From the IMG/VR virus record IMGVR_UViG_3300037780_000034, positions 32,001-96,000 of that record: a stretch of DNA of 64,000 nt. One strand, given 5' to 3'. The translations under genes and the position numbers were made by a program. Below, piece after piece: positions 47,531 through 64,000 of the stretch. The notes beneath the pieces are model-generated. The model did no database searches. It had not been told where the DNA came from and saw only the letters and a list, made by a program, of their open reading frames with translations. The stretch comes from a virus (lineage: Duplodnaviria; Caudoviricetes). Each line of letters starts with the position of its first letter. Position 1 is the first letter of the stretch.

Positions 47531-47699
47531 TGCGATGAAAACAAAAATTTCAAATATAATAGAGATAATATACTATCATCTAGAAATAATGAGTTATGCA
47601 CGATCCATTTCTATGTTATATGATATGGGATATCCAGACCTTGCAAAGAAAGCTTTTGAAAATTTAAAAGAGTTCCAAAAGCAATACAACAAAGGTTGA
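47508..47699 (+). CDS. small hypothetical protein
   Basis: 63 aa; overlaps the previous ORF. Confidence 0.6.
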   Translation: MEILEMYNAMKTKISNIIEIIYYHLEIMSYARSISMLYDMGYPDLAKKAFENLKEFQKQYNKG

Positions 47700-47724
47700 C
47701 ACTAACGCATCGTTCTGCTATATC
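47696..47724 (+). promoter_or_regulatory. sigma70-like promoter (TTGAC-N17-CTATAT)
   Basis: Exact spacing read from sequence. Confidence 0.7.
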
Positions 47725-47755
47725 CACAGATGTAAGTCTAATAGGATATAGCAGA

Positions 47756-48358
47756 ATGATCAATGTCCAAGGAAAACTGCCGAAAGAATTGGTAATCGCT
47801 TGTAGCGGCGGCCCTGACAGTATGGCAATCGTTGATTTCCTAAAACGTAAGCACAAAGTTATGCTACAATTTGTTCATCATATGACAGATACAAGTGATG
47901 AAGCATTTGACTTGCTTAAAAAATATGGAAAAGACCATAATATTGATGTTTTCGTAGACTATATTGATCCCGATGTTCCAAAAGGTGTTAGCCAAGAAGA
48001 ACATTGGCGTAATCAACGATATGATGTATTCTTTAAATATAAAAGTCATCCCGTAATTACTGGTCATCATCTTGATGATTGTGTGGAAACTTGGATTTGG
48101 AGTTCTATGCACGGTATGGGAAAAATTATTCCATATCGTAACAACAATGTTATTCGTCCGTTTCGCACAACTCGTAAAACTGATTTTGTAAACTGGTGTG
48201 ATCGTAACAATGTGCCTTATATGATTGATAAATCAAACAATGATCAAAAGTATATGAGGAATTATATTCGCCATACAGTTCTTCCTAACGTATTGCATAT
48301 TAATCCAGGAATTCATAAGACTATCAAAAAGAAAATTATCAATGAAGATATTTGTTAA
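47756..48358 (+). CDS. tilS: tRNA(Ile)-lysidine synthetase, catalytic domain only (start revised to ATG 47756)
   Basis: PP-loop ACSGGPDSM, R..RY, TGHHLDD..ET, IRP, D.SN....Y.RN.IRH. Confidence 0.85.
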   Translation: MINVQGKLPKELVIACSGGPDSMAIVDFLKRKHKVMLQFVHHMTDTSDEAFDLLKKYGKDHNIDVFVDYIDPDVPKGVSQEEHWRNQRYDVFFKYKSHPVITGHHLDDCVETWIWSSMHGMGKIIPYRNNNVIRPFRTTRKTDFVNWCDRNNVPYMIDKSNNDQKYMRNYIRHTVLPNVLHINPGIHKTIKKKIINEDIC

Positions 48359-48376
48359 ATACTCCTAAACAGGAGA

Positions 48377-48964
48377 TTGACAATGACACATTATGTTTTT
48401 ATTCACGGAGCAAATTCCAGTGGAAATAGTTTTAATTATACATTATCACAATTAGAATTAAACAAAAAAGATTATACCCTTGTAAAATATAAAAGTTCTG
48501 ATGGATTTTATTTTAATTTAGAGCAAATGGCTGATAAAATAAAAGATAAAAAGAATATACTTGTAGTAGGGCATAGCTTGGGCGGATTATATGCATTGCA
48601 TTTGACAAAATTAGTAAATGTAGTATCCGGAATAAGTATATCAACCCCGTTCAATGGAAGTTCACTTGCAGATTGGGCAAAGTTTATGATGCCAAATTAT
48701 CAATTATGGCACGATATTGGCACAAACAGTCATCCAGTTGTTATGGGAAAAGAAATAAATCTTGAAATTCCGTGGACACAAATAGTTTCTACAAAAGGAA
48801 GGGTTCCTTGGATTGTTCCAGACAACGATGGTGTAGTCACTATTAGAAGTCAAAAATCAAGAAAAGATATGAATTTTTTAGAATTGCCTTATAACCATTA
48901 TGAAATTATGTGTGTTCCACAAACAGTAGAAGTTATAAAAAGTCATAAAAATATGATGGATTGA
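48377..48964 (+). CDS. alpha/beta hydrolase
   Basis: FIHG, GHSLGG nucleophile elbow, NDGVV, NH. Confidence 0.85.
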   Translation: MTMTHYVFIHGANSSGNSFNYTLSQLELNKKDYTLVKYKSSDGFYFNLEQMADKIKDKKNILVVGHSLGGLYALHLTKLVNVVSGISISTPFNGSSLADWAKFMMPNYQLWHDIGTNSHPVVMGKEINLEIPWTQIVSTKGRVPWIVPDNDGVVTIRSQKSRKDMNFLELPYNHYEIMCVPQTVEVIKSHKNMMD

Positions 48965-48989
48965 CAAGATATAGTCAATGTGATATACC
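48961..48989 (+). promoter_or_regulatory. sigma70-like promoter with TTGAC-N8-GTCAA inverted repeat
   Basis: TTGACA-17-TATACC. Confidence 0.6.
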
Positions 48990-49012
48990 TTGATAAAACA
49001 AGGAGTATCACA

Positions 49013-49468
49013 ATGAAAAAGGGCGAATCACTTTCAACTGCAATTCATATTGCAACTAATGCACATCACGGGCAGTTTGATAAAGGCGGAAAGCCTTATA
49101 TTCTTCATTGTTTCCGTGTAATGAACTATCTTGACACCGATGATGAAGAATTGCAATGTATTGCACTTTTGCACGATGTTGCAGAAGATACAAAAACAAC
49201 TTTTCAAGATATGCTTGATAGTGGTATGTCTAAACGTATTGTTGATGCAGTAAAATTGTTAACAAAGATGCCCGGTCAAACATACGAAGAATATAAAACC
49301 GGAGTTCTTTCAAATATTGATGCTATGCTTGTAAAAAAAGCAGATTTGACTGATAATTCCGATATACGGCGACTAAAAGGAATTACAGAGCGTGATATTG
49401 AAAGAACTGCAAAATATCATCGGTTCTATCTTGAGATTGAATCCAAAATGAGAGAGAAAAATGTATAA
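49013..49468 (+). CDS. HD-domain (p)ppGpp-hydrolase-like protein (Mesh1/SAH) (start revised to ATG 49013)
   Basis: AH.GQ.DKGG.PYI.H, ALLHDVAED, VK.AD..DN; AGGAG RBS. Confidence 0.8.
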   Translation: MKKGESLSTAIHIATNAHHGQFDKGGKPYILHCFRVMNYLDTDDEELQCIALLHDVAEDTKTTFQDMLDSGMSKRIVDAVKLLTKMPGQTYEEYKTGVLSNIDAMLVKKADLTDNSDIRRLKGITERDIERTAKYHRFYLEIESKMREKNV

Positions 49469-50633
49469 AAATATTAAAAAGTTTGATCCCATTTATAAAC
49501 GTGATTCCAGTGGGTCAACACGAATGTGGTCTATGCAAATCGGTTATACCGATACATCTGCATCACATCGTGTTGTATCCGGTGTATTAAATGGTAAGAT
49601 GGTAACAAGTGAATGGAAAGCGTGTAATCCAAAAAATATCGGAAAATCAAACGAGACAACTGCTTTGCAACAAGCAGAATCAGAAGTATCTTCATTGTAT
49701 ACAAAAAAGTTAGAGACCGGATATTTCAAAAATGTCAAAGAAATAGATGAGTTTGCAAAAACAAAACCTATGCTGGCATCACAACACGAAAATCATACTT
49801 ATGATTTTAAAAATAATATGTATTATTCTCAGCCAAAGATTGATGGTATCAGGTGCATTGCACGAAAAGATGGTCTATGGACAAGAACAGGTAAAGAAAT
49901 TGTTTCTATCCCTCACATTGGTAAAGAACTTAAAAATTTCTTTGAAAAATATCCGGATGCAATAATTGACGGAGAATTATACAACCACGATCTTAAAGAC
50001 GATTTTAATAAAATCACTTCTCTTGTTCGTAAAACAAAACCAAAACAATATGATTATGTAGAAACACAAAAACTTGTTCAATATCATATTTATGATATGG
50101 TCAATATGCCAGAAAAAGAAAAAACATTTTATGGAAAAAATCCATTTTTTAGTGATAGAATTTCGTGGCTAAAAGATGAATTGCTAAATTCATTTTCTGT
50201 AAACGATACCTTTATTAAATTTGTTCCTACACTTGCAGTGTATGATATGGAACAACTTGATAAATTATATGGTGAATATCTTGAATATGGATACGAAGGC
50301 CAAATGATACGCATAAACGCAGTTTATCAAGAAGATAAACGTTCTAAATATCTTATAAAACGAAAAGAGTTTTTAAGTGAAGAATTTCCAGTTTTAGAAA
50401 TGACAGAAGGACAAGGAAATTGGGCTGGACATATAAAGCAGCTTGTTCTACAATTGCCAGATGAAAGGAAGTTTGGAGCAGGAATTCGCGGGACACAAGA
50501 AGTTCTTAGCAATTTATACAAAAATGGAAAAAAACCGGATTGGGCAACAGTAAGATACTTTACGCCTACACCAGATGGTATACCTCGTTTCCCAGTAGTG
50601 GTTGATTGGGGATATGGAACTCGTAACGATTGA
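49461..50633 (+). CDS. lig: ATP-dependent DNA ligase
   Basis: QPKIDG, DGELY, YHIYD, EGQMIR, LIKRK, PRFP. Confidence 0.9.
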   Translation: MYKNIKKFDPIYKRDSSGSTRMWSMQIGYTDTSASHRVVSGVLNGKMVTSEWKACNPKNIGKSNETTALQQAESEVSSLYTKKLETGYFKNVKEIDEFAKTKPMLASQHENHTYDFKNNMYYSQPKIDGIRCIARKDGLWTRTGKEIVSIPHIGKELKNFFEKYPDAIIDGELYNHDLKDDFNKITSLVRKTKPKQYDYVETQKLVQYHIYDMVNMPEKEKTFYGKNPFFSDRISWLKDELLNSFSVNDTFIKFVPTLAVYDMEQLDKLYGEYLEYGYEGQMIRINAVYQEDKRSKYLIKRKEFLSEEFPVLEMTEGQGNWAGHIKQLVLQLPDERKFGAGIRGTQEVLSNLYKNGKKPDWATVRYFTPTPDGIPRFPVVVDWGYGTRND

Positions 50634-50656
50634 TAACATAATATAGGAATATAGTT

Positions 50657-51040
50657 ATGAAATTATTAAACTTTTTTAAAAATATTACTAAATCTCTTTT
50701 TTCAAAATATGCAGTTTACACATATAATACAAGAGGAACAACATTTTATGTTGGTTGTTATAAATATAGAGGAAAATGGTATGGAATTGACAGAAAAATT
50801 CCCGATATTGAAGAAGAACTATTAACAAATAACAATATAAATTCTGTTACGAATAAAGTATATTCAGATAATTTTTTATGGAGAATTGACTTTAATATTA
50901 CTCCAGCCACCGGAGATAGAATACATGAATATTGCACAGTTAACAACAAAGAAGATGCCAAGTTTGCTATAAAAAAGCATAAAGATATACAAAACTTTTT
51001 AAAGAGTAAAAATGTTAAGCCAACAGTAGAATACTGTTGA
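50657..51040 (+). CDS. hypothetical protein
   Basis: 127 aa. Confidence 0.7.
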   Translation: MKLLNFFKNITKSLFSKYAVYTYNTRGTTFYVGCYKYRGKWYGIDRKIPDIEEELLTNNNINSVTNKVYSDNFLWRIDFNITPATGDRIHEYCTVNNKEDAKFAIKKHKDIQNFLKSKNVKPTVEYC

Positions 51041-51065
51041 CACTGTATACTGATTATGTCATAGT
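51037..51065 (+). promoter_or_regulatory. sigma70-like promoter
   Basis: TTGACA-17-CATAGT. Confidence 0.6.
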
Positions 51066-51091
51066 GGATTCACCACAGTAAGGAACATTCT

Positions 51092-51682
51092 ATGAACTAT
51101 TGTTTTCCACAAATTCGCACAATTGATGATGTCCTTCCTTATATAAAAGGACGTGAAGAATTTGTTGTTGCTGAACGTGAGTTTGGCACAGTGATAAACT
51201 ATATGGTATCAATGCCAGACACGTTTGATATGAAGGGACCAGATGATTTAGGCGGGGCTATTCGTCGTGAATGTCGTGGAATTAAGTTCTATCCTGACGG
51301 AACTATTGCTTCTCGTGTTTTTCATAAATTTTTCAATATTGGAGAACGTGAAGAAACACAAATTCATAAAATTGATTTAACGTTACAACACACACTTATG
51401 GACAAACGTGATGGAAGTATGATACACCCGATGATGGTAAATGGGTATATTCGCTGGATGACAAAAATGGGTTTATCAGATGTAGCATTGCAAGCAGAAA
51501 AATATATCAATACCACAAACAACTATAATCCTTTTGCTGCTTGGTGTATTGAAAGCGGATTAACTCCAATTTTTGAATATACTGGTCCAAATAACCGAAT
51601 TGTTGTTTCTTATGAAAAAGAAGAATTAGTTCTACTTGCAGTTCGTGACAACATTACTGGAGAATATCTTGATGTTACTTGA
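51092..51682 (+). CDS. rnlA: RNA ligase 1 (T4 Rnl1-like), N-terminal part
   Basis: RECRGI, HKFFN, motif I KRDGS, IFEY, NRIV, LLAVRD. Confidence 0.85.
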   Translation: MNYCFPQIRTIDDVLPYIKGREEFVVAEREFGTVINYMVSMPDTFDMKGPDDLGGAIRRECRGIKFYPDGTIASRVFHKFFNIGEREETQIHKIDLTLQHTLMDKRDGSMIHPMMVNGYIRWMTKMGLSDVALQAEKYINTTNNYNPFAAWCIESGLTPIFEYTGPNNRIVVSYEKEELVLLAVRDNITGEYLDVT

Positions 51683-52232
51683 TAAAATAAAAGAATATAA
51701 TATTCCTGTAGTAGAAACTCATCAAGCGTTTGATGACATTCATTCTCTTATAGAACATACAAAACATCTTAAAAATGCAGAAGGATTTATCATTTCGTTT
51801 CCTAATGGTCATAAACTTAAGATCAAAGCTGACGAATATGTAAGAATTCATAAAACAAAAGATATGATCCAGTTTGATCGTAACATAGTTGACTTGATCA
51901 TCAATGAAAATATTGATGATGTTATTCCTATGTTGCCAGAAACTGATGTAAATCGTATTCGTGATTTTGAAAAACGATTCTGGAAAGCATTTCTTGATAC
52001 TGAGAAAAAGTTGTATGGATTATATCGTGAAGCCGGAACATCGTATGATTATGATAAAAAACGTATTGCGACTGAATACATTCCGAAATATATAAAAGAC
52101 AAAACATATAGTTCATTTATATTCAGTCAAATAGATGGAAAAGATTTGCGCAATATGTTGCTAAAACATATTGAAAAAAACATAACAACTAACGTTAAAT
52201 GGGACCAATGCGCAAAATGGTTAGGAATGTAA
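51672..52232 (+). CDS. rnlA: RNA ligase 1, C-terminal part (different frame)
   Basis: Motif IV EGFII and motif V KLKIKADEY, then a helical C-domain; ATG 51672 overlaps the upstream stop. Confidence 0.8.
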   Translation: MLLDKIKEYNIPVVETHQAFDDIHSLIEHTKHLKNAEGFIISFPNGHKLKIKADEYVRIHKTKDMIQFDRNIVDLIINENIDDVIPMLPETDVNRIRDFEKRFWKAFLDTEKKLYGLYREAGTSYDYDKKRIATEYIPKYIKDKTYSSFIFSQIDGKDLRNMLLKHIEKNITTNVKWDQCAKWLGM

Positions 52233-52514
52233 ATGTTTAAATATATTAAGTCTTTATTTGTTAAACAACCAAAAAAAGAAAAAAAATTTATTGTTACCTT
52301 TAAAGGACAAATTTTTTTTACAGGTAATTCTAAAGAAAAATTGGAAAAACAAATATATAATGCATTCTTAATTCATACCAATTCACATACCATACCTGTA
52401 TTGAATAATAGCTATAAATTATCAGAAAGATACAAATTATTTAGAAGTTACTTCAAAATAACAGAAGTATGCACAACTTGTGGACATAAATCAGGATATT
52501 GTGGACAATGCTAA
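52233..52514 (+). CDS. hypothetical protein with C-terminal Cys motif
   Basis: CTTCG..GYCGQC. Confidence 0.65.
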   Translation: MFKYIKSLFVKQPKKEKKFIVTFKGQIFFTGNSKEKLEKQIYNAFLIHTNSHTIPVLNNSYKLSERYKLFRSYFKITEVCTTCGHKSGYCGQC

Positions 52515-52876
52515 GAACTGTAAAATATGAAGATAAATTTGTTCAAGGAAAACTTGTTCAAAATGAGAATGTGTTTTGCTCTTGTTCCGATGGATACATC
52601 AGTATAGATAGGTGTGACTGCGAATCTGGTTGGGCAAAACGTGCAACAGTTGACCACAAGGGAACATTGTATACTGGCGAATTGGTTCCAATTGTTGTCA
52701 AAAACCCAAGTTTCACTGTTTCCGTAGTAAAAGAAAATGAGGATGGATCATGTGAAATAGAAATAGAAATGGATGACTTTTCCAGCAACTTTTTCCACAA
52801 AGAGTCAACTCGTTTTAATATGAGTCTAGAAGATTATATTGTTTCACTGCTTGCGAAACAATCTAAATTTATATAA
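52499..52876 (+). CDS. hypothetical protein
   Basis: Cys cluster; C-terminal ribbon-helix-helix-like segment. Confidence 0.65.
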   Translation: MWTMLRTVKYEDKFVQGKLVQNENVFCSCSDGYISIDRCDCESGWAKRATVDHKGTLYTGELVPIVVKNPSFTVSVVKENEDGSCEIEIEMDDFSSNFFHKESTRFNMSLEDYIVSLLAKQSKFI

Positions 52877-52910
52877 TAACAAAATATGTCGCTATAAAAA
52901 GGAGAATAAT

Positions 52911-53108
52911 GTGACACATCTGCAATATAAAATTACAATTAATTCTGGGTTAGATCATAACGAAGAACCACAAATCTCGTTTAGTATGGACGAAGATACT
53001 CATACTTTTTTAGAAACAATGTCAACTGACAATAATATTACTGTAGGAGAGCTTGTAGCTAGTTTTCTTATGGGTGCAAAATTTACTACGGCTTCTTATG
53101 TAAACTAA
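52911..53108 (+). CDS. small hypothetical protein (GTG 52911)
   Basis: AGGAG RBS; RHH-like pattern. Confidence 0.6.
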   Translation: MTHLQYKITINSGLDHNEEPQISFSMDEDTHTFLETMSTDNNITVGELVASFLMGAKFTTASYVN

Positions 53109-53117
53109 AAATTGTTC

Positions 53118-53146
53118 TTGACAAACGAATCAATATGATCTAATAT
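53118..53146 (+). promoter_or_regulatory. sigma70-like promoter
   Basis: TTGACA-17-TAATAT. Confidence 0.75.
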
Positions 53147-53208
53147 AACAACTTGAATGATAACAGCAAACCAAACAAAACATCATTCTGACAAATAGGA
53201 GAAATAAT

Positions 53209-54636
53209 ATGTCAGCACTATTCAAAGCAGTAAACCGTGAAACTACAGTAACCGAAAATGGTATGGCAACACTTGAATCAAGTCTGGATTCAGTTGTTGA
53301 CCTTTTCTTTAAAATCGGTGCAAGCCGTGGAAAATTTGATGCACTAAAAAATACATTAAGTGCTGCATTTGCAACAGACCCTGAAATGACTGTTCGCGTT
53401 CTTCTTTGGTCTCGTGATGTTCGCGGCGGTGCCGGTGAACGAAAGCTATTCCGTGATGCTATACTATTTGGTTTCCAAATTGGTGCACTCACGAAAGAAC
53501 AAGGTGATCGCATTGTATCAAAAGTCCCAGAACTTGGGCGTTTTGATGATCTTTATGCATTCATCGGAACACCAAGTGAAAATGCAGCAATTGAACTTTT
53601 TGCTGGTGCACTTCGTTCTGGAAACGGTCTAGCTGCTAAGTGGAGTGATCGTAAAGGTATGAATGCAGTAAAAATGCGCAAAGCAATGGGTCTAACTCCA
53701 AAACAATATCGTAAGCTTGTTGTAAACAACACAAACGTTGTGGAACAACTTATGTGTGCAAAAAGCTGGAATTCTATTGAATTTGACAAGCTACCTAGTG
53801 TTGCTGCATCACGGTATCAAAAAGCTTTTTGGAAAAATGCAAACGAATCATATTCCAAATATGTAGAAAGCCTTAAAAAAGGTGAAGCAAAAATCAATGC
53901 TGGTGCGGTGTATCCATATGATATTGTCAAAAGCCTAAATTATGGCGATAAAGATGTTGCAAACCAACAGTGGAATTCACTTCCTGACTATATGGAAGGA
54001 ACAGAAAATCGCGGTATTCTACCTGTAGTTGATGTAAGTGCAAGTATGACTGTTCCAGCAGGAGGATATGGTTCAGGATCAAGTGTAACTTGTCTTGATG
54101 TTGCTGTGTCACTTGGACTTTACCTAAGTGAACGCAATCGTGGTATATTCAAAGATCAGTTTATTACTTTTAGTAATAATCCACAAATGCATAAACTTTC
54201 CGGAAATCTTTATCAACGGTATACACAACTTCGTCGTGCAGATTGGCAAATGTCAACTGACCTTGAAAAAGTATTCAAAGTTGTTCTTGATGCTGCAATC
54301 AATGGAAAGGTTGCTGAAAGTGATATGCCTGAAACAATTCTTATTCTTTCTGATATGCAATTTAATAGTGCAGTATCATCGCGTTATGGACGTAGCAACC
54401 CAACATCTTTTGAAATGATCAGTGATATATACAAAAATGCTGGTTATAAAATGCCAAACGTAGTTTACTGGAACATTAATTCAAAAAGTGGTGTTCCTGT
54501 TGAATTTGACCAAAGTGGAACGGCTCTTGTAAGCGGATTCTCGCCTTCAATTATGAAGTCTATAATTCGTGCAGAAAATGTCACTCCTGTTGATGTTATG
54601 AAGCAAACAATTATGGACAGTCGCTACGATTGGTAA
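53209..54636 (+). CDS. TROVE/Ro-like protein with vWA domain (DUF2828-type)
   Basis: TENG, RDVRGGAGER..F, GRFDDL, LAAKW, MIDAS VDVSASM, ILSDMQF, WNI. Confidence 0.85.
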   Translation: MSALFKAVNRETTVTENGMATLESSLDSVVDLFFKIGASRGKFDALKNTLSAAFATDPEMTVRVLLWSRDVRGGAGERKLFRDAILFGFQIGALTKEQGDRIVSKVPELGRFDDLYAFIGTPSENAAIELFAGALRSGNGLAAKWSDRKGMNAVKMRKAMGLTPKQYRKLVVNNTNVVEQLMCAKSWNSIEFDKLPSVAASRYQKAFWKNANESYSKYVESLKKGEAKINAGAVYPYDIVKSLNYGDKDVANQQWNSLPDYMEGTENRGILPVVDVSASMTVPAGGYGSGSSVTCLDVAVSLGLYLSERNRGIFKDQFITFSNNPQMHKLSGNLYQRYTQLRRADWQMSTDLEKVFKVVLDAAINGKVAESDMPETILILSDMQFNSAVSSRYGRSNPTSFEMISDIYKNAGYKMPNVVYWNINSKSGVPVEFDQSGTALVSGFSPSIMKSIIRAENVTPVDVMKQTIMDSRYDW

Positions 54637-54654
54637 CATAATCTCTTTAAACTT

Positions 54655-54680
54655 AAAAAGAGCAGAAATGCTCTTTTTTT
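54655..54680 (+). terminator. intrinsic terminator
   Basis: AAAAAGAGCA-GAAA-TGCTCTTTTTTT. Confidence 0.9.
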
Positions 54681-54703
54681 ATTTCTCAAAAAATGAAAGT
54701 TAA

Positions 54704-55276
54704 ATGATAATAATGAGTGAAACACCTAAAATAAATACAGAATATAACTCAGAAAATTTAGAATCTTTTTTAAATAATTTTTATAAAGACCCAAGTGAAA
54801 AATATGTAGCATTATTTGAAAGTATGCATAACCTATGCAAGGAAAATGGATGGGGAGAACCCTTCTCTTATGCCAGAAGTAGAGAAATCCATATGGCTTG
54901 TATCCTTGGAAACACTCTTGCTGACACCTATAGCGGTGCAGATGCCTATGATGAAGATGGTCCTTGTGAATACAAATCTACCATTTCAAACAAGATAAAT
55001 GCAACATATAACGGAATATCAGTTCAACCTTCTTGGGATGAACAAATAAAATATTTAAAAGAAGAAAAAATAGGAAAATATAAAAATCACTACTATGCCA
55101 GATATAATGGCAGTTCTATAGAAGAAATATGGAAATTAACTGCTGATGACGTAATTAGTATTGTAGAAGAACCATTGAAAAAACAATATCATAATAAAAG
55201 TAATAAAAAAGACCCAAGATTGGGCATAAATATTAGTGAAGGAAAAATAAAACAATATGGCAAAAGAATCTTATGA
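54704..55276 (+). CDS. PvuII-family type II restriction endonuclease-like protein
   Basis: GADAYDEDGPCEYKS matches PvuII GNDAVDNAGQEYELKS; KIGKY..YYARYNGSSIEEIWKL matches IIAKY..FAIYRGIAIEAIYRL (compared from memory). Confidence 0.65.
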   Translation: MIIMSETPKINTEYNSENLESFLNNFYKDPSEKYVALFESMHNLCKENGWGEPFSYARSREIHMACILGNTLADTYSGADAYDEDGPCEYKSTISNKINATYNGISVQPSWDEQIKYLKEEKIGKYKNHYYARYNGSSIEEIWKLTADDVISIVEEPLKKQYHNKSNKKDPRLGINISEGKIKQYGKRIL

Positions 55277-56216
55277 AAGTAAACTTATAAACGGAGATTT
55301 TTTAAAAGAAATATATCAAGTAGAAGATAATATAGTAGACCTATTACTTACAGATTTGCCATATAACATAAGTGAAAAAGGAGCAAACCCAGAATGGTTT
55401 GTAACTGATGAAAAAACTGGCGAAAAAATAAACAAAAACGGAATTCATAATCAACAGTTTGATGATAAATTTGAAGAAAAATGGGATTCTTTGTCCGAAG
55501 ACGATTTCATAAAAAATCTACAAATATGGGCAAATACGTGGTATCCAAAACTAAGAAATGGTGGTTCTTTTGCTATATTCATTAGTGATCGTTATATTTC
55601 GCATTTATGGTCAGCTATGGAAAAGGCTGGATTTGAACCAAAACGAATATGGACTTGGAAAAAGCCAGCAGCAGTTCCTTTTAATAGAAAAGTGAATCCA
55701 GTAAGCGGTTGTGAATATATTTTGTGGGGAATAAAACCAAACGGTAAAAGAACATTTAATTCAGATTGTCCACAAGAAAATATAGTAGCAAGATATAGTA
55801 TGGCTGATAAATTAAGTTCTATACTATATAAAAAATTAAAAGATGATACAGAAATGAATTTAGATAAATGTTTCTTAGAAGCATTAGTTGATGCCAAAAA
55901 AGTTTATGAAAATTTAAAAAGAACAAACGATATAGAACATTGTGTAATTCCAAACACAATAACATATAGTGGCGGTCTAGGAAAAGATAAAATCCATCCT
56001 ACTCAAAAGCCAGAAGAAGTATTAGAATATTTTATAGAATTATTGACCAACAAAAACGATATAGTATTAGATACTTTTGCTGGAAGCGGAAGCACAGGTA
56101 TGGCGTGTAAAAAATTAGATAGAAAATATATTTTAATAGAAAAAGACAATAATATGTTTAAAAAAATGAGCGCCAGATTTGAAGAAAATCCACTATTAAA
56201 GAATTTATTTGAATAA
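55257..56216 (+). CDS. beta-class amino (N4C/N6A) DNA methyltransferase
   Basis: Motif IV TDLPY, HPTQKP, motif I LDTFAGSGSTG at the C-terminus. Confidence 0.9.
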   Translation: MAKESYESKLINGDFLKEIYQVEDNIVDLLLTDLPYNISEKGANPEWFVTDEKTGEKINKNGIHNQQFDDKFEEKWDSLSEDDFIKNLQIWANTWYPKLRNGGSFAIFISDRYISHLWSAMEKAGFEPKRIWTWKKPAAVPFNRKVNPVSGCEYILWGIKPNGKRTFNSDCPQENIVARYSMADKLSSILYKKLKDDTEMNLDKCFLEALVDAKKVYENLKRTNDIEHCVIPNTITYSGGLGKDKIHPTQKPEEVLEYFIELLTNKNDIVLDTFAGSGSTGMACKKLDRKYILIEKDNNMFKKMSARFEENPLLKNLFE

Positions 56217-56231
56217 ACTATACACTTAAAT

Positions 56232-56239
56232 AATAAATA
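56232..56239 (+). promoter_or_regulatory. late promoter variant AATAAATA
   Basis: Directly upstream of the 2H phosphoesterase gene. Confidence 0.5.
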
Positions 56240-56266
56240 TCTTTATAGTAAAATATGGAGATATTT

Positions 56267-56767
56267 ATGAAAACATTTAAAGAATATTTAAAAGAACAAG
56301 AATTACCAGAAGAAATAAAATATGTTGCAATAATTTGCGATCAATCTACCCAAACAAAACTCATAAATTATTGTATTAAAAATAACTTTAATTTAGAAAA
56401 ATCATATGATGACGAACAGCAATCACCAGAAGATTTTGAATTTCACGTTACTATATTTTTTACAAATTCTCTGCATAAGATTGAAAATAAAGAAGAACAG
56501 TTAAATGATGTAATTTCAGCTAATCCAATTAAATTAGAAGTATTTGGTCAAAATAAAGATGTTCCTGTATTAAAAGTTGAAGGCGATGGAATATCAAAGT
56601 TGAGAAAATACTTTGAAAAAACATATAATATGACTGATGAGTGGCCAGACTTTAAACCACATATATCATTGAGTTATGATAGAAAACCATATAACGTTGA
56701 CGAAATAGAACTACCAGATTTCCCCATATACTTTGATAAGTTAGTAATAAGAAGCGGGGAAGAATAA
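56267..56767 (+). CDS. 2H phosphoesterase, T4 57B/Acb1-like (start revised to ATG 56267)
   Basis: Two HxT/S motifs (FHVTI, PHISLSY), N-terminal YVA; GGAG RBS. Confidence 0.8.
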   Translation: MKTFKEYLKEQELPEEIKYVAIICDQSTQTKLINYCIKNNFNLEKSYDDEQQSPEDFEFHVTIFFTNSLHKIENKEEQLNDVISANPIKLEVFGQNKDVPVLKVEGDGISKLRKYFEKTYNMTDEWPDFKPHISLSYDRKPYNVDEIELPDFPIYFDKLVIRSGEE

Positions 56768-57301
56768 ATGTCAAAATTAGGAAAAACAGAATATCCAAGA
56801 AGTAAAAATGAATTTTATCCAACACCAATTTCTGCATTAGAACCATTAGTTTTACATTTAGAACAGAATATTACATATTGTGAACCTTGTGCAGGAGCAA
56901 ACGATTTAGTAAAAAATCTTGCAATTTTAAGACCTGATATTAAATGTAGTATATCATTTGACATTGATCCAAGGGATAATAATATTATAAAAAAATCTGC
57001 AACAGACATAGAAAAAAGTGAAATAGATAATATAGATTATTTTATAACAAATCCTCCATTTAAGTGGGAAATGTTTGATCCAATAACAACTCATTTAATT
57101 TCATTAAAACCTACTTGGTTATTAATTCCTTCAGATTTTATGCATAATAAAAGAATGGGACCATATATGAAAAAATGCTCCAAGGTGGTGTCTGTTGGAA
57201 GAGTAAAATGGTTTTCTGATAGTAAAGCCACAAGCACTGATAATTTTTGTTGGTATCTTTTTCAAAATGAATTGACAGAAACACGTTTCTACGGAAGATA
57301 A
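56768..57301 (+). CDS. small gamma-class N6-adenine DNA methyltransferase
   Basis: EFYPTP, EPCAG, ITNPPF, W.LIP, GRVKW. Confidence 0.85.
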   Translation: MSKLGKTEYPRSKNEFYPTPISALEPLVLHLEQNITYCEPCAGANDLVKNLAILRPDIKCSISFDIDPRDNNIIKKSATDIEKSEIDNIDYFITNPPFKWEMFDPITTHLISLKPTWLLIPSDFMHNKRMGPYMKKCSKVVSVGRVKWFSDSKATSTDNFCWYLFQNELTETRFYGR

Positions 57302-60237: not shown

Positions 60238-61038
60238 ATGAATAAAAATTCTGATGAATTCGGTAATCGTATGAAGTTTTTTGAACGAGCATACACCGAT
60301 GTTCGTATCCCTATTAATGTGCCTCTTTGTGTTCGTATTGATGGAAAAGGTTTTAGTAAATTTACCAAAGGATTTACAAAACCTTTTGACAGCCATTTAA
60401 CACAGGCAATGATTGATACAACTAAGCATTTGGTAAAAGAAACAAATGCAAATATTGGGTATACACAATCAGATGAAATTACTCTAATATGGTTTCAACG
60501 AAGTGAAAAGCAAAATGAACATATTTTTGGAGGAAAAGTATCAAAGATAAATTCTATACTTGCAAGTATGGCATCAGCAGCTTTTAACCATTATATTGAA
60601 AAATATTCTCCAATTTTGTATGCGGGAAAAGGGTTGGCTTACTTTGATTGTCGTGCTTGGAGTGTTCCAAATGATGTTGAAGCAAGTAACGTTTTACTAT
60701 GGCGTATTCAAGATGCAAAGAAAAATAGCATATCAAGCTTATATCGTTGGACTCTTGGATATAGCACTATGCACGGGTTAAGTGGAACCCAAATGATTGA
60801 AAAATTAAAATCAAGTGGAACAGATTGGGAAAAACTATCTGCAACATATCGTTATGGTGTTTGTGTTCGTCGTAAACCTCGTATGGTTGAACTGGATAGT
60901 GAAACATTGGCAAAGATTCCAGTTGACAAACAACCTGAAAATGCTATGGTAATGAGAAATGAATACGTAGAAGAACGTGCAGATAAATTTGCTGAACGTA
61001 GTTTGAAATCTCGTGTAACCTATATAAAAGGATACTAA
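60238..61038 (+). CDS. thg1: tRNA-His guanylyltransferase / Thg1-like 3'-5' polymerase
   Basis: VRIDGKGFSKFT, KPFD, YTQSDEIT, FGGKVSK, FDCR, WRIQDA.KNSI. Confidence 0.9.
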   Translation: MNKNSDEFGNRMKFFERAYTDVRIPINVPLCVRIDGKGFSKFTKGFTKPFDSHLTQAMIDTTKHLVKETNANIGYTQSDEITLIWFQRSEKQNEHIFGGKVSKINSILASMASAAFNHYIEKYSPILYAGKGLAYFDCRAWSVPNDVEASNVLLWRIQDAKKNSISSLYRWTLGYSTMHGLSGTQMIEKLKSSGTDWEKLSATYRYGVCVRRKPRMVELDSETLAKIPVDKQPENAMVMRNEYVEERADKFAERSLKSRVTYIKGY

Positions 61039-62605: not shown

Positions 62606-62636
62606 AGAATAATACATCAACTAAAGGAGCTTTAGT

Positions 62637-63557
62637 ATGAAAAAAATTTATCTTTGCGGACCAACCCTATACTCTGATATTCATATCGGGAACGCTAGAA
62701 GTATGGTTCTGTTTGATGTAATTTCAGAATATTATCGTAGAACAGAAGGCGTCATTTATATTAGAAATATTACTGATGTAGATGATAAAATCATATCTTT
62801 AGCAGGAGAACAACACCCCGCAGAATGGGTTAATGAAAATACATTAAAATCATTCGTTGATGCAAAAAAATTTCTTAGTCTAAAAGACCCAGATTACGAA
62901 CCTCGTGCATCAAACTTTATTGATGATATGATTTTGTATATACAAAATTTAGAAAAAAAGGGTTATACGTTTTCTCTTGAAGACGGTATATATCTTGATA
63001 TTACTAAAGTAGATTATCCTACAAAAATTTCAAATCGTCCTGTTGGATCAAAACAAGATTCATTTGCTATTTGGAAATTTACAGATGTTGGATATACTTG
63101 GGATAGTCCGTGGGGCAAAGGTCGCCCTGGCTGGCATACCGAATGTGCAGTAATGATTGATAAATTATTAGGAAAAGTAGATTTACATGGTGGAGGAAAT
63201 GATTTACTATTCCCACATCACGAAAATGAAAATATTCAATGCCGGTGCACTAATGGTCACGATATTTCTGTTAATTGGCTACACGTAGGATTTGTAAAAG
63301 TCAATAATGAAAAAATGTCTAAAAGTGCAGGAAATGTTATAACAGTAAAACAATTGGAAAAAGATTGGAGTAGTGAAGCAATTCGTGTATTTTTGTTGAT
63401 GGCTTCTTATTCTAAGCCTATTGATTTTACTATGGCAAGAATGAAGGAAGCCGAAACTATATCAATTAGAAGACCAGAAGCTGCTTGGTTGACAACAGAA
63501 GAATGGTCTGATAAAATGCTAAAAAAGTTAGAAAACAACTTCGATACCAGACTGTAG
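62637..63557 (+). CDS. cysS: cysteinyl-tRNA synthetase-like protein, catalytic domain only
   Basis: CGPT, HIGN, NITDVDDKII, SPWGKGRPGWHTEC, HGGG.DL.FPHHENE, KMSKS; ends at ...NNFDTRL. Confidence 0.85.
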   Translation: MKKIYLCGPTLYSDIHIGNARSMVLFDVISEYYRRTEGVIYIRNITDVDDKIISLAGEQHPAEWVNENTLKSFVDAKKFLSLKDPDYEPRASNFIDDMILYIQNLEKKGYTFSLEDGIYLDITKVDYPTKISNRPVGSKQDSFAIWKFTDVGYTWDSPWGKGRPGWHTECAVMIDKLLGKVDLHGGGNDLLFPHHENENIQCRCTNGHDISVNWLHVGFVKVNNEKMSKSAGNVITVKQLEKDWSSEAIRVFLLMASYSKPIDFTMARMKEAETISIRRPEAAWLTTEEWSDKMLKKLENNFDTRL

Positions 63558-63606
63558 AAAAGTGACAGAACAAAATAAACACAAAATCAACTAAAGGAGT
63601 TTTAGG

Positions 63607-64000
63607 ATGGAAATTATTAACGAAGTAATTACATATTTCTCAGGAACTTGGGGAATGGTAGAATTAGCAGGAACTATTTTTAGTTTAATCTGCGTATATC
63701 TTGCAACAAAACATAATCAATGGACTTGGTTCTTTGGTGCATTGGGAGTCATTCTATTTGGTGCACTGTTTTATGAGTATAAACTGTATAGTGATGCAGT
63801 ATTGCAAATTTTATTCTTTTTACCCTTACAGGTTTGGGGATTTATGAAATGGCGCGATCTTGCAAATGAATCTGCAAATGATACCGTAACATTGTCACTA
63901 CAACCAAAAACAATAGCCATTATTATAGGATCAATACTTACATTAACTTTGATTAATGGATATGGTATGGCTACATACACAGATGCAAGTTTTCCATATG
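63607..64000 (+). CDS. pnuC: nicotinamide riboside transporter PnuC (partial, runs off window edge)
   Basis: Hand-translated VELAGTIFSLICVYLATKHNQWTWFFG..LYSDAVLQ....VWGF.KW...TDASFPY. Confidence 0.85.
   Translation, partial: MEIINEVITYFSGTWGMVELAGTIFSLICVYLATKHNQWTWFFGALGVILFGALFYEYKLYSDAVLQILFFLPLQVWGFMKWRDLANESANDTVTLSLQPKTIAIIIGSILTLTLINGYGMATYTDASFPY

Follow-up and report, generated by a model that had tools for sequence, protein, structure and literature searches.

When a phage carries the catalytic core of a cysteinyl-tRNA synthetase (CysRS) and nothing of the domain that reads the anticodon, does the protein still charge tRNA-Cys, or does it hand activated cysteine to some other acceptor? 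We examined this question for one gene, here called mini-CysRS, in a 64,000-nucleotide stretch of viral DNA (the window). A sequence-only reading of the gene had proposed a cysteine-adenylating enzyme with a non-canonical acceptor or, as a second possibility, a relaxed synthetase that charges damaged tRNAs, and had named simple truncation during cassette capture as the alternative. The window belongs to an IMG/VR virus record of 317,722 bp with 31% GC, ~85% completeness, a T4 Gp23 major capsid gene and 24 tRNA genes. The virus record and its capsid gene confirm the phage origin of the DNA, and the carrier of mini-CysRS is a giant T4-like pond phage.

Domain content and family assignment of mini-CysRS

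The mini-CysRS ORF (62637..63557, + strand) runs from an ATG start to a TAG stop and encodes 306 aa. A ribosome-binding site, AAAGGAG, is located at 62623-62629, 7 nt before the ATG, and read-through of the TAG would add just 6 more codons before a TAA. The features of the gene and its immediate flanks, with the basis of each in brackets, are the following:

62616..62629, + strand: 14-nt leader ATCAACTAAAGGAG, including the AAAGGAG ribosome-binding site (sequence read)
62637..63557, + strand: mini-CysRS gene, 306 codons plus TAG (ORF, Pfam/NCBIfam, alignment, structure model)
62655..62693, + strand: CGPT, with zinc ligand C7 (E. coli C28), to HIGN, the ATP-binding HIGH motif (invariant in 13/13 family members)
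62934..63122, + strand: reduced connective polypeptide (CP) insertion, residues 100-162 (without the canonical AGARxxxxxKKxP segment)
63132..63146, + strand: WHTEC, with cysteine-pocket Trp W166 (E. coli W205) and zinc ligand C170 (C209) (alignment)
63216..63230, + strand: HHENE, with zinc ligands H194 (E. coli H234) and E198 (E238) (alignment)
63312..63326, + strand: KMSKS loop, residues 226-230 (E. coli 266-270) (sequence, alignment)
63327..63485, + strand: stem-contact (SC) fold, residues 231-283, with a family-specific KDWS motif (model, conservation)
63486..63554, + strand: family-specific C-terminal tail RPEAAWL..EWSD..NFDTRL (in 12/13 members; tail dN/dS 0.13-0.17)
63586..63599, + strand: second copy of ATCAACTAAAGGAG, before pnuC, whose ATG is at 63607 (sequence read)

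All motifs quoted in the earlier reading were recovered in the 306-aa ORF: CGPT at residues 7-10, HIGN at 16-19, HTEC within WHTEC at 166-170, HHENE at 194-198 and KMSKS at 226-230. In an alignment with E. coli CysRS (1li5), the zinc ligands C28, C209, H234 and E238 correspond to C7, C170, H194 and E198, W205 to W166, HIGH (37-40) to HIGN and residues 266-270 to KMSKS, and the zinc site, the W205 position, HIGH and KMSKS of canonical CysRS are accordingly all represented in mini-CysRS. The final Asn of HIGN is not a defect, as the nearest full-length CysRSs have HIGN too.

By profile comparison, the protein matches Pfam PF01406 (tRNA-synt_1e, the CysRS/MshC catalytic domain) over residues 3-273 (profile positions 11-300 of 301, E 7e-82), with 275.6 bits against a gathering cut-off of 27. 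It scores below the cut-off of the NCBIfam cysS equivalog TIGR00435 (283.9 bits against 340), covering only positions 23-316 of that 466-position profile, and below that of the MshC equivalog TIGR03447 (154.3 bits against 485.1). Mini-CysRS is therefore a member of PF01406 that stands outside both the CysRS and the MshC equivalogs.

An AlphaFold2 model of the protein (mean pLDDT 94.8) superposes on residues 22-356 of E. coli CysRS with a Z score of 34.8 and an rmsd of 2.0 Å over 293 aligned residues, so that mini-CysRS ends at the equivalent of E. coli residue ~356 and also lacks the first 21 canonical residues. The NFDT near its C-terminus aligns with canonical DDFNT, with which the helical bundle of full-length CysRS begins, and the endpoint of the model and alignment thus places the stop just past NFDT, within helix 1 of the helical-bundle/DALR region. 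Both DALR_2 (PF09190) and the CysS_C anticodon-binding domain (PF23493) are absent from the protein. These results bear out the earlier claim that it stops at the start of the helical DALR region without an anticodon-binding domain.

Relative to bacterial CysS (E. coli, PDB 1LI5/1U0B; also 8QHP and 3TQO), mini-CysRS has in common the Rossmann-fold catalytic domain, the zinc-thiolate pocket, HIGH, KMSKS and the SC fold, at 35-42% identity, Z ~35 and rmsd ~2 Å over 293-297 residues. Unlike those enzymes, it has no N-terminal hairpin, lacks one conserved segment of the CP, and has no helical bundle past the first helix and no alpha/beta anticodon-binding domain, and its family, besides falling below the TIGR00435 cut-off, has lost about half of the near-invariant CP residues.

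We also searched the rest of the genome for the missing half. In the 318-kb sequence (~85% complete), neither DALR_2 nor CysS_C gave a match at E <= 1 and tblastn gave none better than E 0.05; we rejected the idea of a split gene, as these searches found no remnant of an anticodon domain. Profiles of five major synthetase families likewise gave no other match in the genome, with PF00133 hitting only the KMSKS region of mini-CysRS itself; this phage thus has a single synthetase core, specific for cysteine.

Conservation, selection and phage context of the short family

In a comparison with 5.8 billion proteins, the nearest relatives of mini-CysRS are 306, 306, 304, 304, 314, 321, 319 and 323 aa long (78-45% identity), and full-length CysRSs rank only beneath these short relatives. 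A profile search recovered 12 clusters of 283-323 aa, the window protein included, at 375 bits or more, and full-length CysRSs scored at most 329 bits; one further sequence from a 50%-identity library (P0122) brings the short family to 13 clusters. Eleven short members group together on one side of a branch in the maximum-likelihood tree (SH-aLRT 100; stem length 1.02 changes per site), a topology that fits one origin followed by a long diversification of the short family. We delimit this phage mini-CysRS clade by a length of 283-323 aa, CGPTL[YH]S, no N-terminal hairpin, a shortened CP, an end after the SC fold or an NFNT tail, and a phage context, all of which the window protein shows.

The catalytic motifs are identical in all 13 family members, and the tail (..RPxxAW..EWSD..NFNTRL) is kept in 12 of them, the remaining member ending right behind the SC fold. 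Members differ in the stop codon (TAG, TAA or TGA) that they use at the homologous endpoint. Over the whole gene, pairwise dN/dS values are 0.06-0.09, and over the family-specific tail 0.13-0.17, with synonymous sites near saturation, and the Rossmann fold, the zinc/cysteine pocket, HIGH, KMSKS and the SC fold have been kept under strong purifying selection. A protein search with the tail alone (residues 262-306) returned the query as its sole match.

These data answer the check that the earlier reading had proposed, namely whether close homologs have the same endpoint under purifying selection; since they do, and since that selection is strong, accidental truncation during cassette capture is rejected and a functional enzyme that activates cysteine is supported. 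A related view, in which the gene is a functionless, decaying remnant of a captured host cysS, could draw on the score below the cysS family cut-off and on the duplicated 14-nt leader that brackets the gene, which suggests modular gene shuffling; the 14-mer ATCAACTAAAGGAG occurs twice in the whole 318-kb genome, before mini-CysRS and before pnuC. An endpoint common to 13 diverged clusters with three different stop codons, a dN/dS of 0.06-0.09 and invariant catalytic residues contradict decay, which we consider very improbable.

Several unusual CysRS forms were also seen in the profile search (P0123, P0137, P0152 and P0210), all of which the tree places outside the phage clade. One of them, 858 aa long, has two CysRS-like halves, and the others are 339-420 aa long and lack the N-terminal hairpin and/or part of the CP. 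The ESM Atlas additionally holds bacterial clusters of short CysRS-like proteins of 317-385 aa.

Every context seen for the family is a phage, comprising T4-like jumbo phages and one HK97-type phage, with GC contents of 31-55%. A 210-kb contig carries one member close to genes for PolB, a RecA/UvsX-like protein, DnaB and UvrD; others lie on phage-like contigs of 20-29 kb with HNH, PNKP, RlaP and NAD-salvage genes; one adjoins ribonucleotide reductase; and on a siphovirus-like contig of 55% GC one immediately precedes the genes for terminase, portal and HK97 capsid. Searches of other collections recovered full-length enzymes. A DNA-level search of a phage collection gave no match to the window region, and tblastn against the same collection gave 18 records, all at 41% identity or less and none in the short clade. 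A scan of IMG/VR with the family profile returned only distant full-length CysRSs of 452-591 aa and one partial frame at a contig end, and a scan of metagenome contigs with the family N-terminus gave at least 80 matches, of which all 12 inspected were canonical CysRS. The sequencing runs listed as containing the sequence are pond and other metagenome DNA only, with no RNA run among them.

Two records assigned to Acinetobacter phage MD-2021a were dismissed as phage carriers of cysS. They look bacterial, with LPS genes around cysS; in one of them (L102) lptA/lptB, kdsC and kdsD surround the gene, as expected of a bacterial chromosome.

In the window, a run of RNA-repair and counter-defence genes upstream of mini-CysRS (47696-57301) encodes a PP-loop (TilS-like) protein, an alpha/beta hydrolase, an ATP-dependent DNA ligase, an Rnl1-type RNA ligase, a DUF2828/DUF7788 protein, an N6/N4 DNA methylase and an Acb1-like phosphodiesterase. 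The Pfam match of the Rnl1-type ligase stops at 51682. Also upstream, by 1.6 kb, is a gene for a Thg1-like protein (60238-61038, 266 aa, tRNA-His guanylyltransferase family PF04446, E 1.5e-31). Directly downstream is an NAD+ salvage block (63607-64000 and L006:1607-11349) encoding PnuC, AAA_28 (a NadR-type kinase), NMNAT-Nudix and NAMPT. In the 78%-identical relative (L015), the ORF that follows mini-CysRS matches a window ORF 5.4 kb downstream, and for this reason the block from PnuC to NMNAT is probably an insertion in the window phage. L003, a 51%-identical relative, likewise has an NMNAT-Nudix and NAMPT pair 3-5 kb from its mini-CysRS gene.

A near-consensus sigma-70-type promoter (TTGACA, 17-nt spacing, TAAAAT, with TG) is present at 63489-63517, inside the 3' end of mini-CysRS and ~90 nt before pnuC. 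The promoter and terminator scan as a whole was not above chance, and no T4-type late promoter (TATAAATA) was found near mini-CysRS.

Across the seven family loci compared, no gene is consistently adjacent to mini-CysRS, and the pairs that loci have in common besides mini-CysRS itself are the NMNAT-Nudix gene (window and L003) and a small ORF (window and L015). This weighs against the view that mini-CysRS is one half of a two-piece synthetase whose anticodon-binding part is supplied in trans by a phage or host protein. Naturally split synthetases exist and provide a precedent, and the conserved tail could be a docking peptide, but with no neighbour conserved in the seven loci and no DALR_2, CysS_C or tblastn remnant in the ~85%-complete genome we regard such an arrangement as improbable.

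Probable tRNA-side losses and the candidate acceptors

The adenylation half-reaction is very likely kept, judging from the conserved catalytic site, and the question becomes what receives the cysteine. We compared the family with 226-299 full-length CysRSs, in which the residues discussed here as replaced are 90-100% conserved. The family lacks the canonical N-terminal hairpin (21 residues), and the conserved basic CP segment AGARxxxxxKKxP of 14-17 aa (about E. coli Q158-N177) is deleted. The Tyr of GxAY (E. coli Y135) and the Asp of DFxLWK (D180), both 100% conserved in canonical enzymes, are replaced; the equivalents of R168 and K175 are lost; the canonical Arg at query position 31 has become Glu, a charge reversal; the Arg of HYR is lost, and its Tyr partly so; partial replacement also affects His in WxHxG and Gln in EIAQ; and two members have lost the SPWG loop. 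Of the canonical columns that are at least 90% conserved, the family keeps 10 of 21 in the CP compared with 49 of 60 elsewhere (Fisher p 0.004). The CP is also where family members resemble one another least, at a mean identity of 0.32 compared with 0.49-0.58 in the other domains, a dip that canonical CysRS does not have. The CP insertion of mini-CysRS is thus incomplete by the standard of a cysteine--tRNA ligase.

Since the parts by which a canonical CysRS probably holds its tRNA are deleted or relaxed and the adenylation site is invariant, we prefer a non-canonical acceptor. The loss of the anticodon-binding domain and of conserved basic residues, together with a shortened and relaxed CP, makes us lean in this direction. 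Those catalytic-core-only paralogs of synthetases that have been studied, such as MshC, GluQRS, EpmA, AsnA and amino acid:carrier-protein ligases, use non-canonical acceptors, and this precedent lends the preferred reading further support. On this model the enzyme would bind cysteine on its zinc, form Cys-AMP from ATP and hand the cysteinyl group over to a nucleophile whose selection does not depend on the GCA anticodon; by analogy with MshC, GluQRS and EpmA, candidate acceptors are macromolecules of the host or the phage, modified bases and metabolites. The acceptor is probably one common to many hosts, given that the family occurs in unrelated phages without a conserved partner gene. Several observations run against the model. 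No partner or substrate gene is conserved beside mini-CysRS in the seven loci, and a family carried by such dissimilar phages would require a widespread acceptor, the obvious candidate being tRNA-Cys. A shortened CP also occurs in some CysRSs that are apparently full-length, such as P0210, and the sequence of mini-CysRS is much closer to CysRS than to MshC (284 compared with 154 bits).

In the main competing model, the core is an anticodon-independent CysRS that docks the acceptor end of tRNA-Cys, reads U73 and charges host and/or phage tRNA-Cys. Such an enzyme would aid translation of the phage whenever that of the host is limiting or inhibited, or faces repaired or unmodified tRNA. U73 alone gives minihelices cysteine identity and lets CysRS charge them (PMC9976931). 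Among the 24 tRNA genes of the phage is a tRNA-Cys(GCA) with U73 and an encoded CCA (G000:C1:142276-142350), and U73 is restricted in this phage to tRNA-Cys and tRNA-Gly(UCC). The SC fold, R250, K238 and R279 are conserved in the family, and tRNA-maintenance genes (Thg1-like, Rnl1 and the TilS-like PP-loop) lie close by. The presence of tRNA-Cys in every host fits the absence of a conserved partner gene, and true CysRS is the closest match to mini-CysRS by sequence.

Other observations argue against charging. The anticodon is a major identity element, and changing G34 lowers the efficiency of aminoacylation more than 1000-fold (PMC13449415). An enzyme with the acceptor end as its sole handle on the tRNA should have a better conserved CP, but the CP is instead shortened and relaxed, and conserved basic residues have been lost, one of them by charge reversal. 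The tRNA-Cys gene is 48 kb downstream of mini-CysRS, the genome has no other synthetase, and one family member resides in a small HK97-type phage stretch without a tRNA gene. In addition, U73 on tRNA-Gly would carry a risk of mischarging. On balance we treat anticodon-independent charging as a serious possibility, clearly under an even chance and a little behind the non-canonical acceptor. As for a relaxed synthetase acting on damaged tRNAs, the second suggestion of the sequence-only reading, it found no specific support, with only the nearby RNA-repair genes pointing towards it.

The acceptor stem of the phage tRNA-Cys(GCA) is unusual in having a C2-A71 mismatch and a U4-G69 pair. The tRNA cluster also contains an amber-reading tRNA(CUA) at G000:C1:138544-138617, which has A73. 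We set aside a connection between mini-CysRS and amber suppression, as the A73 of this tRNA, in place of U73, gives no evident link to cysteine identity. TAG closes 17 of 230 long ORFs, and the stop-codon counts give no clear sign of TAG recoding.

A further explanation dispenses with both tRNA and ATP, such that mini-CysRS would act solely as a cysteine persulfide synthase (CPERS) or in another adenylate-only or regulatory role. In E. coli, CysRS produces CysSSH independently of ATP and tRNA through the lysines of its KIIK and KMSK motifs (K73, K76, K266 and K269), K76A markedly lowers this activity, and the zinc cysteines are dispensable for it and required for aminoacylation (PMC5660078). 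The family retains the equivalents of K73, K266 and K269 (K51, K226 and K229), but the K76 equivalent (position 54) varies among S, N, A, Q, D and K. The zinc cysteines and HIGH are invariant in the family, even though CPERS can do without the zinc cysteines. Because these are invariant and the K76 equivalent is not kept, selection acts on the adenylation chemistry, and we judge a moonlighting role of this kind unlikely.

The non-canonical acceptor is our leading explanation. The part of the original proposal that has stood is a probable cysteine-adenylating enzyme with a conserved and selected catalytic core; the nature of its acceptor leans non-canonical on the sequence evidence, with tRNA-Cys charging through U73 as the remaining competitor. 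Overall, mini-CysRS may best be viewed as a cysteine-activating enzyme of a phage-only family descended from bacterial CysRS whose acceptor is, by a tentative judgement close to an even chance, non-canonical.

Related enzymes and implications

Among known enzymes, MshC (Cys:GlcN-Ins ligase of mycothiol synthesis; PDB 3C8Z, 8HFM) resembles the proposed enzyme in being CysRS-derived and free of an anticodon-binding domain and in making Cys-AMP for a non-tRNA acceptor. The mini-CysRS model matches it structurally at Z ~32, although identity is only 26-27%. MshC also differs in length (~410 aa compared with 306 aa), and the phage family branches from ordinary CysRS sequences. Mycothiol is known only from high-GC Actinobacteria, and with family carriers at 31-55% GC a role in mycothiol synthesis is unlikely.

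GluQRS (YadB) is a GluRS catalytic core of ~300 aa, a class I core without an anticodon domain, that glutamylates queuosine in tRNA-Asp. Like mini-CysRS, it is a separate gene for an anticodon-domain-free class I core, and its acceptor is non-canonical. It differs in being GluRS-derived and bacterial rather than phage-borne, and the likeness is one of class I fold.

Full-length CysRS genes of jumbo phages and IMG/VR records are phage-borne and of cysS type, as mini-CysRS is, but they encode 452-591 aa with C-terminal domains, are only 31-41% identical to the window protein, and include no member of the short clade. One example is Sinorhizobium phage Phosso, in which a 456-aa full-length CysRS adjoins an RNA ligase and a tRNA. 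In this 469-kb jumbo phage (L103, 167040-173903) an ATP-grasp protein is also encoded beside the CysRS, and the phage also has a 'serine-tRNA synthetase' of only 250 aa that may be a further stripped-down core.

The literature searched contained no paper on a truncated CysRS from phages, and the mini-CysRS family is a small, unstudied, phage-only CysRS-derived catalytic core. Stripped-down synthetase paralogs have repeatedly proved to be new enzymes, with roles in mycothiol synthesis, queuosine glutamylation and EF-P lysylation. A phage-only cysteine-activating core that is strongly selected across unrelated phage types points to an undescribed cysteine transfer that matters in infection. The protein is small, modelled at high confidence and directly assayable. 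Should it charge tRNA while ignoring the anticodon, it would represent a minimal CysRS of natural origin, useful for work on the evolution of the genetic code and for engineering orthogonal or anticodon-blind incorporation of cysteine or selenocysteine. If instead its acceptor is non-canonical, it would be the CysRS-derived counterpart of GluQRS, EpmA and MshC. It may also be, and this broader proposal we advance with some reserve, the founding example of phage-only CysRS-derived ligases that would employ the old adenylation site to attach cysteine, not to the 3' end of tRNA-Cys, but to a protein of host or phage, a nucleic-acid base or a metabolite in host takeover or counter-defence.
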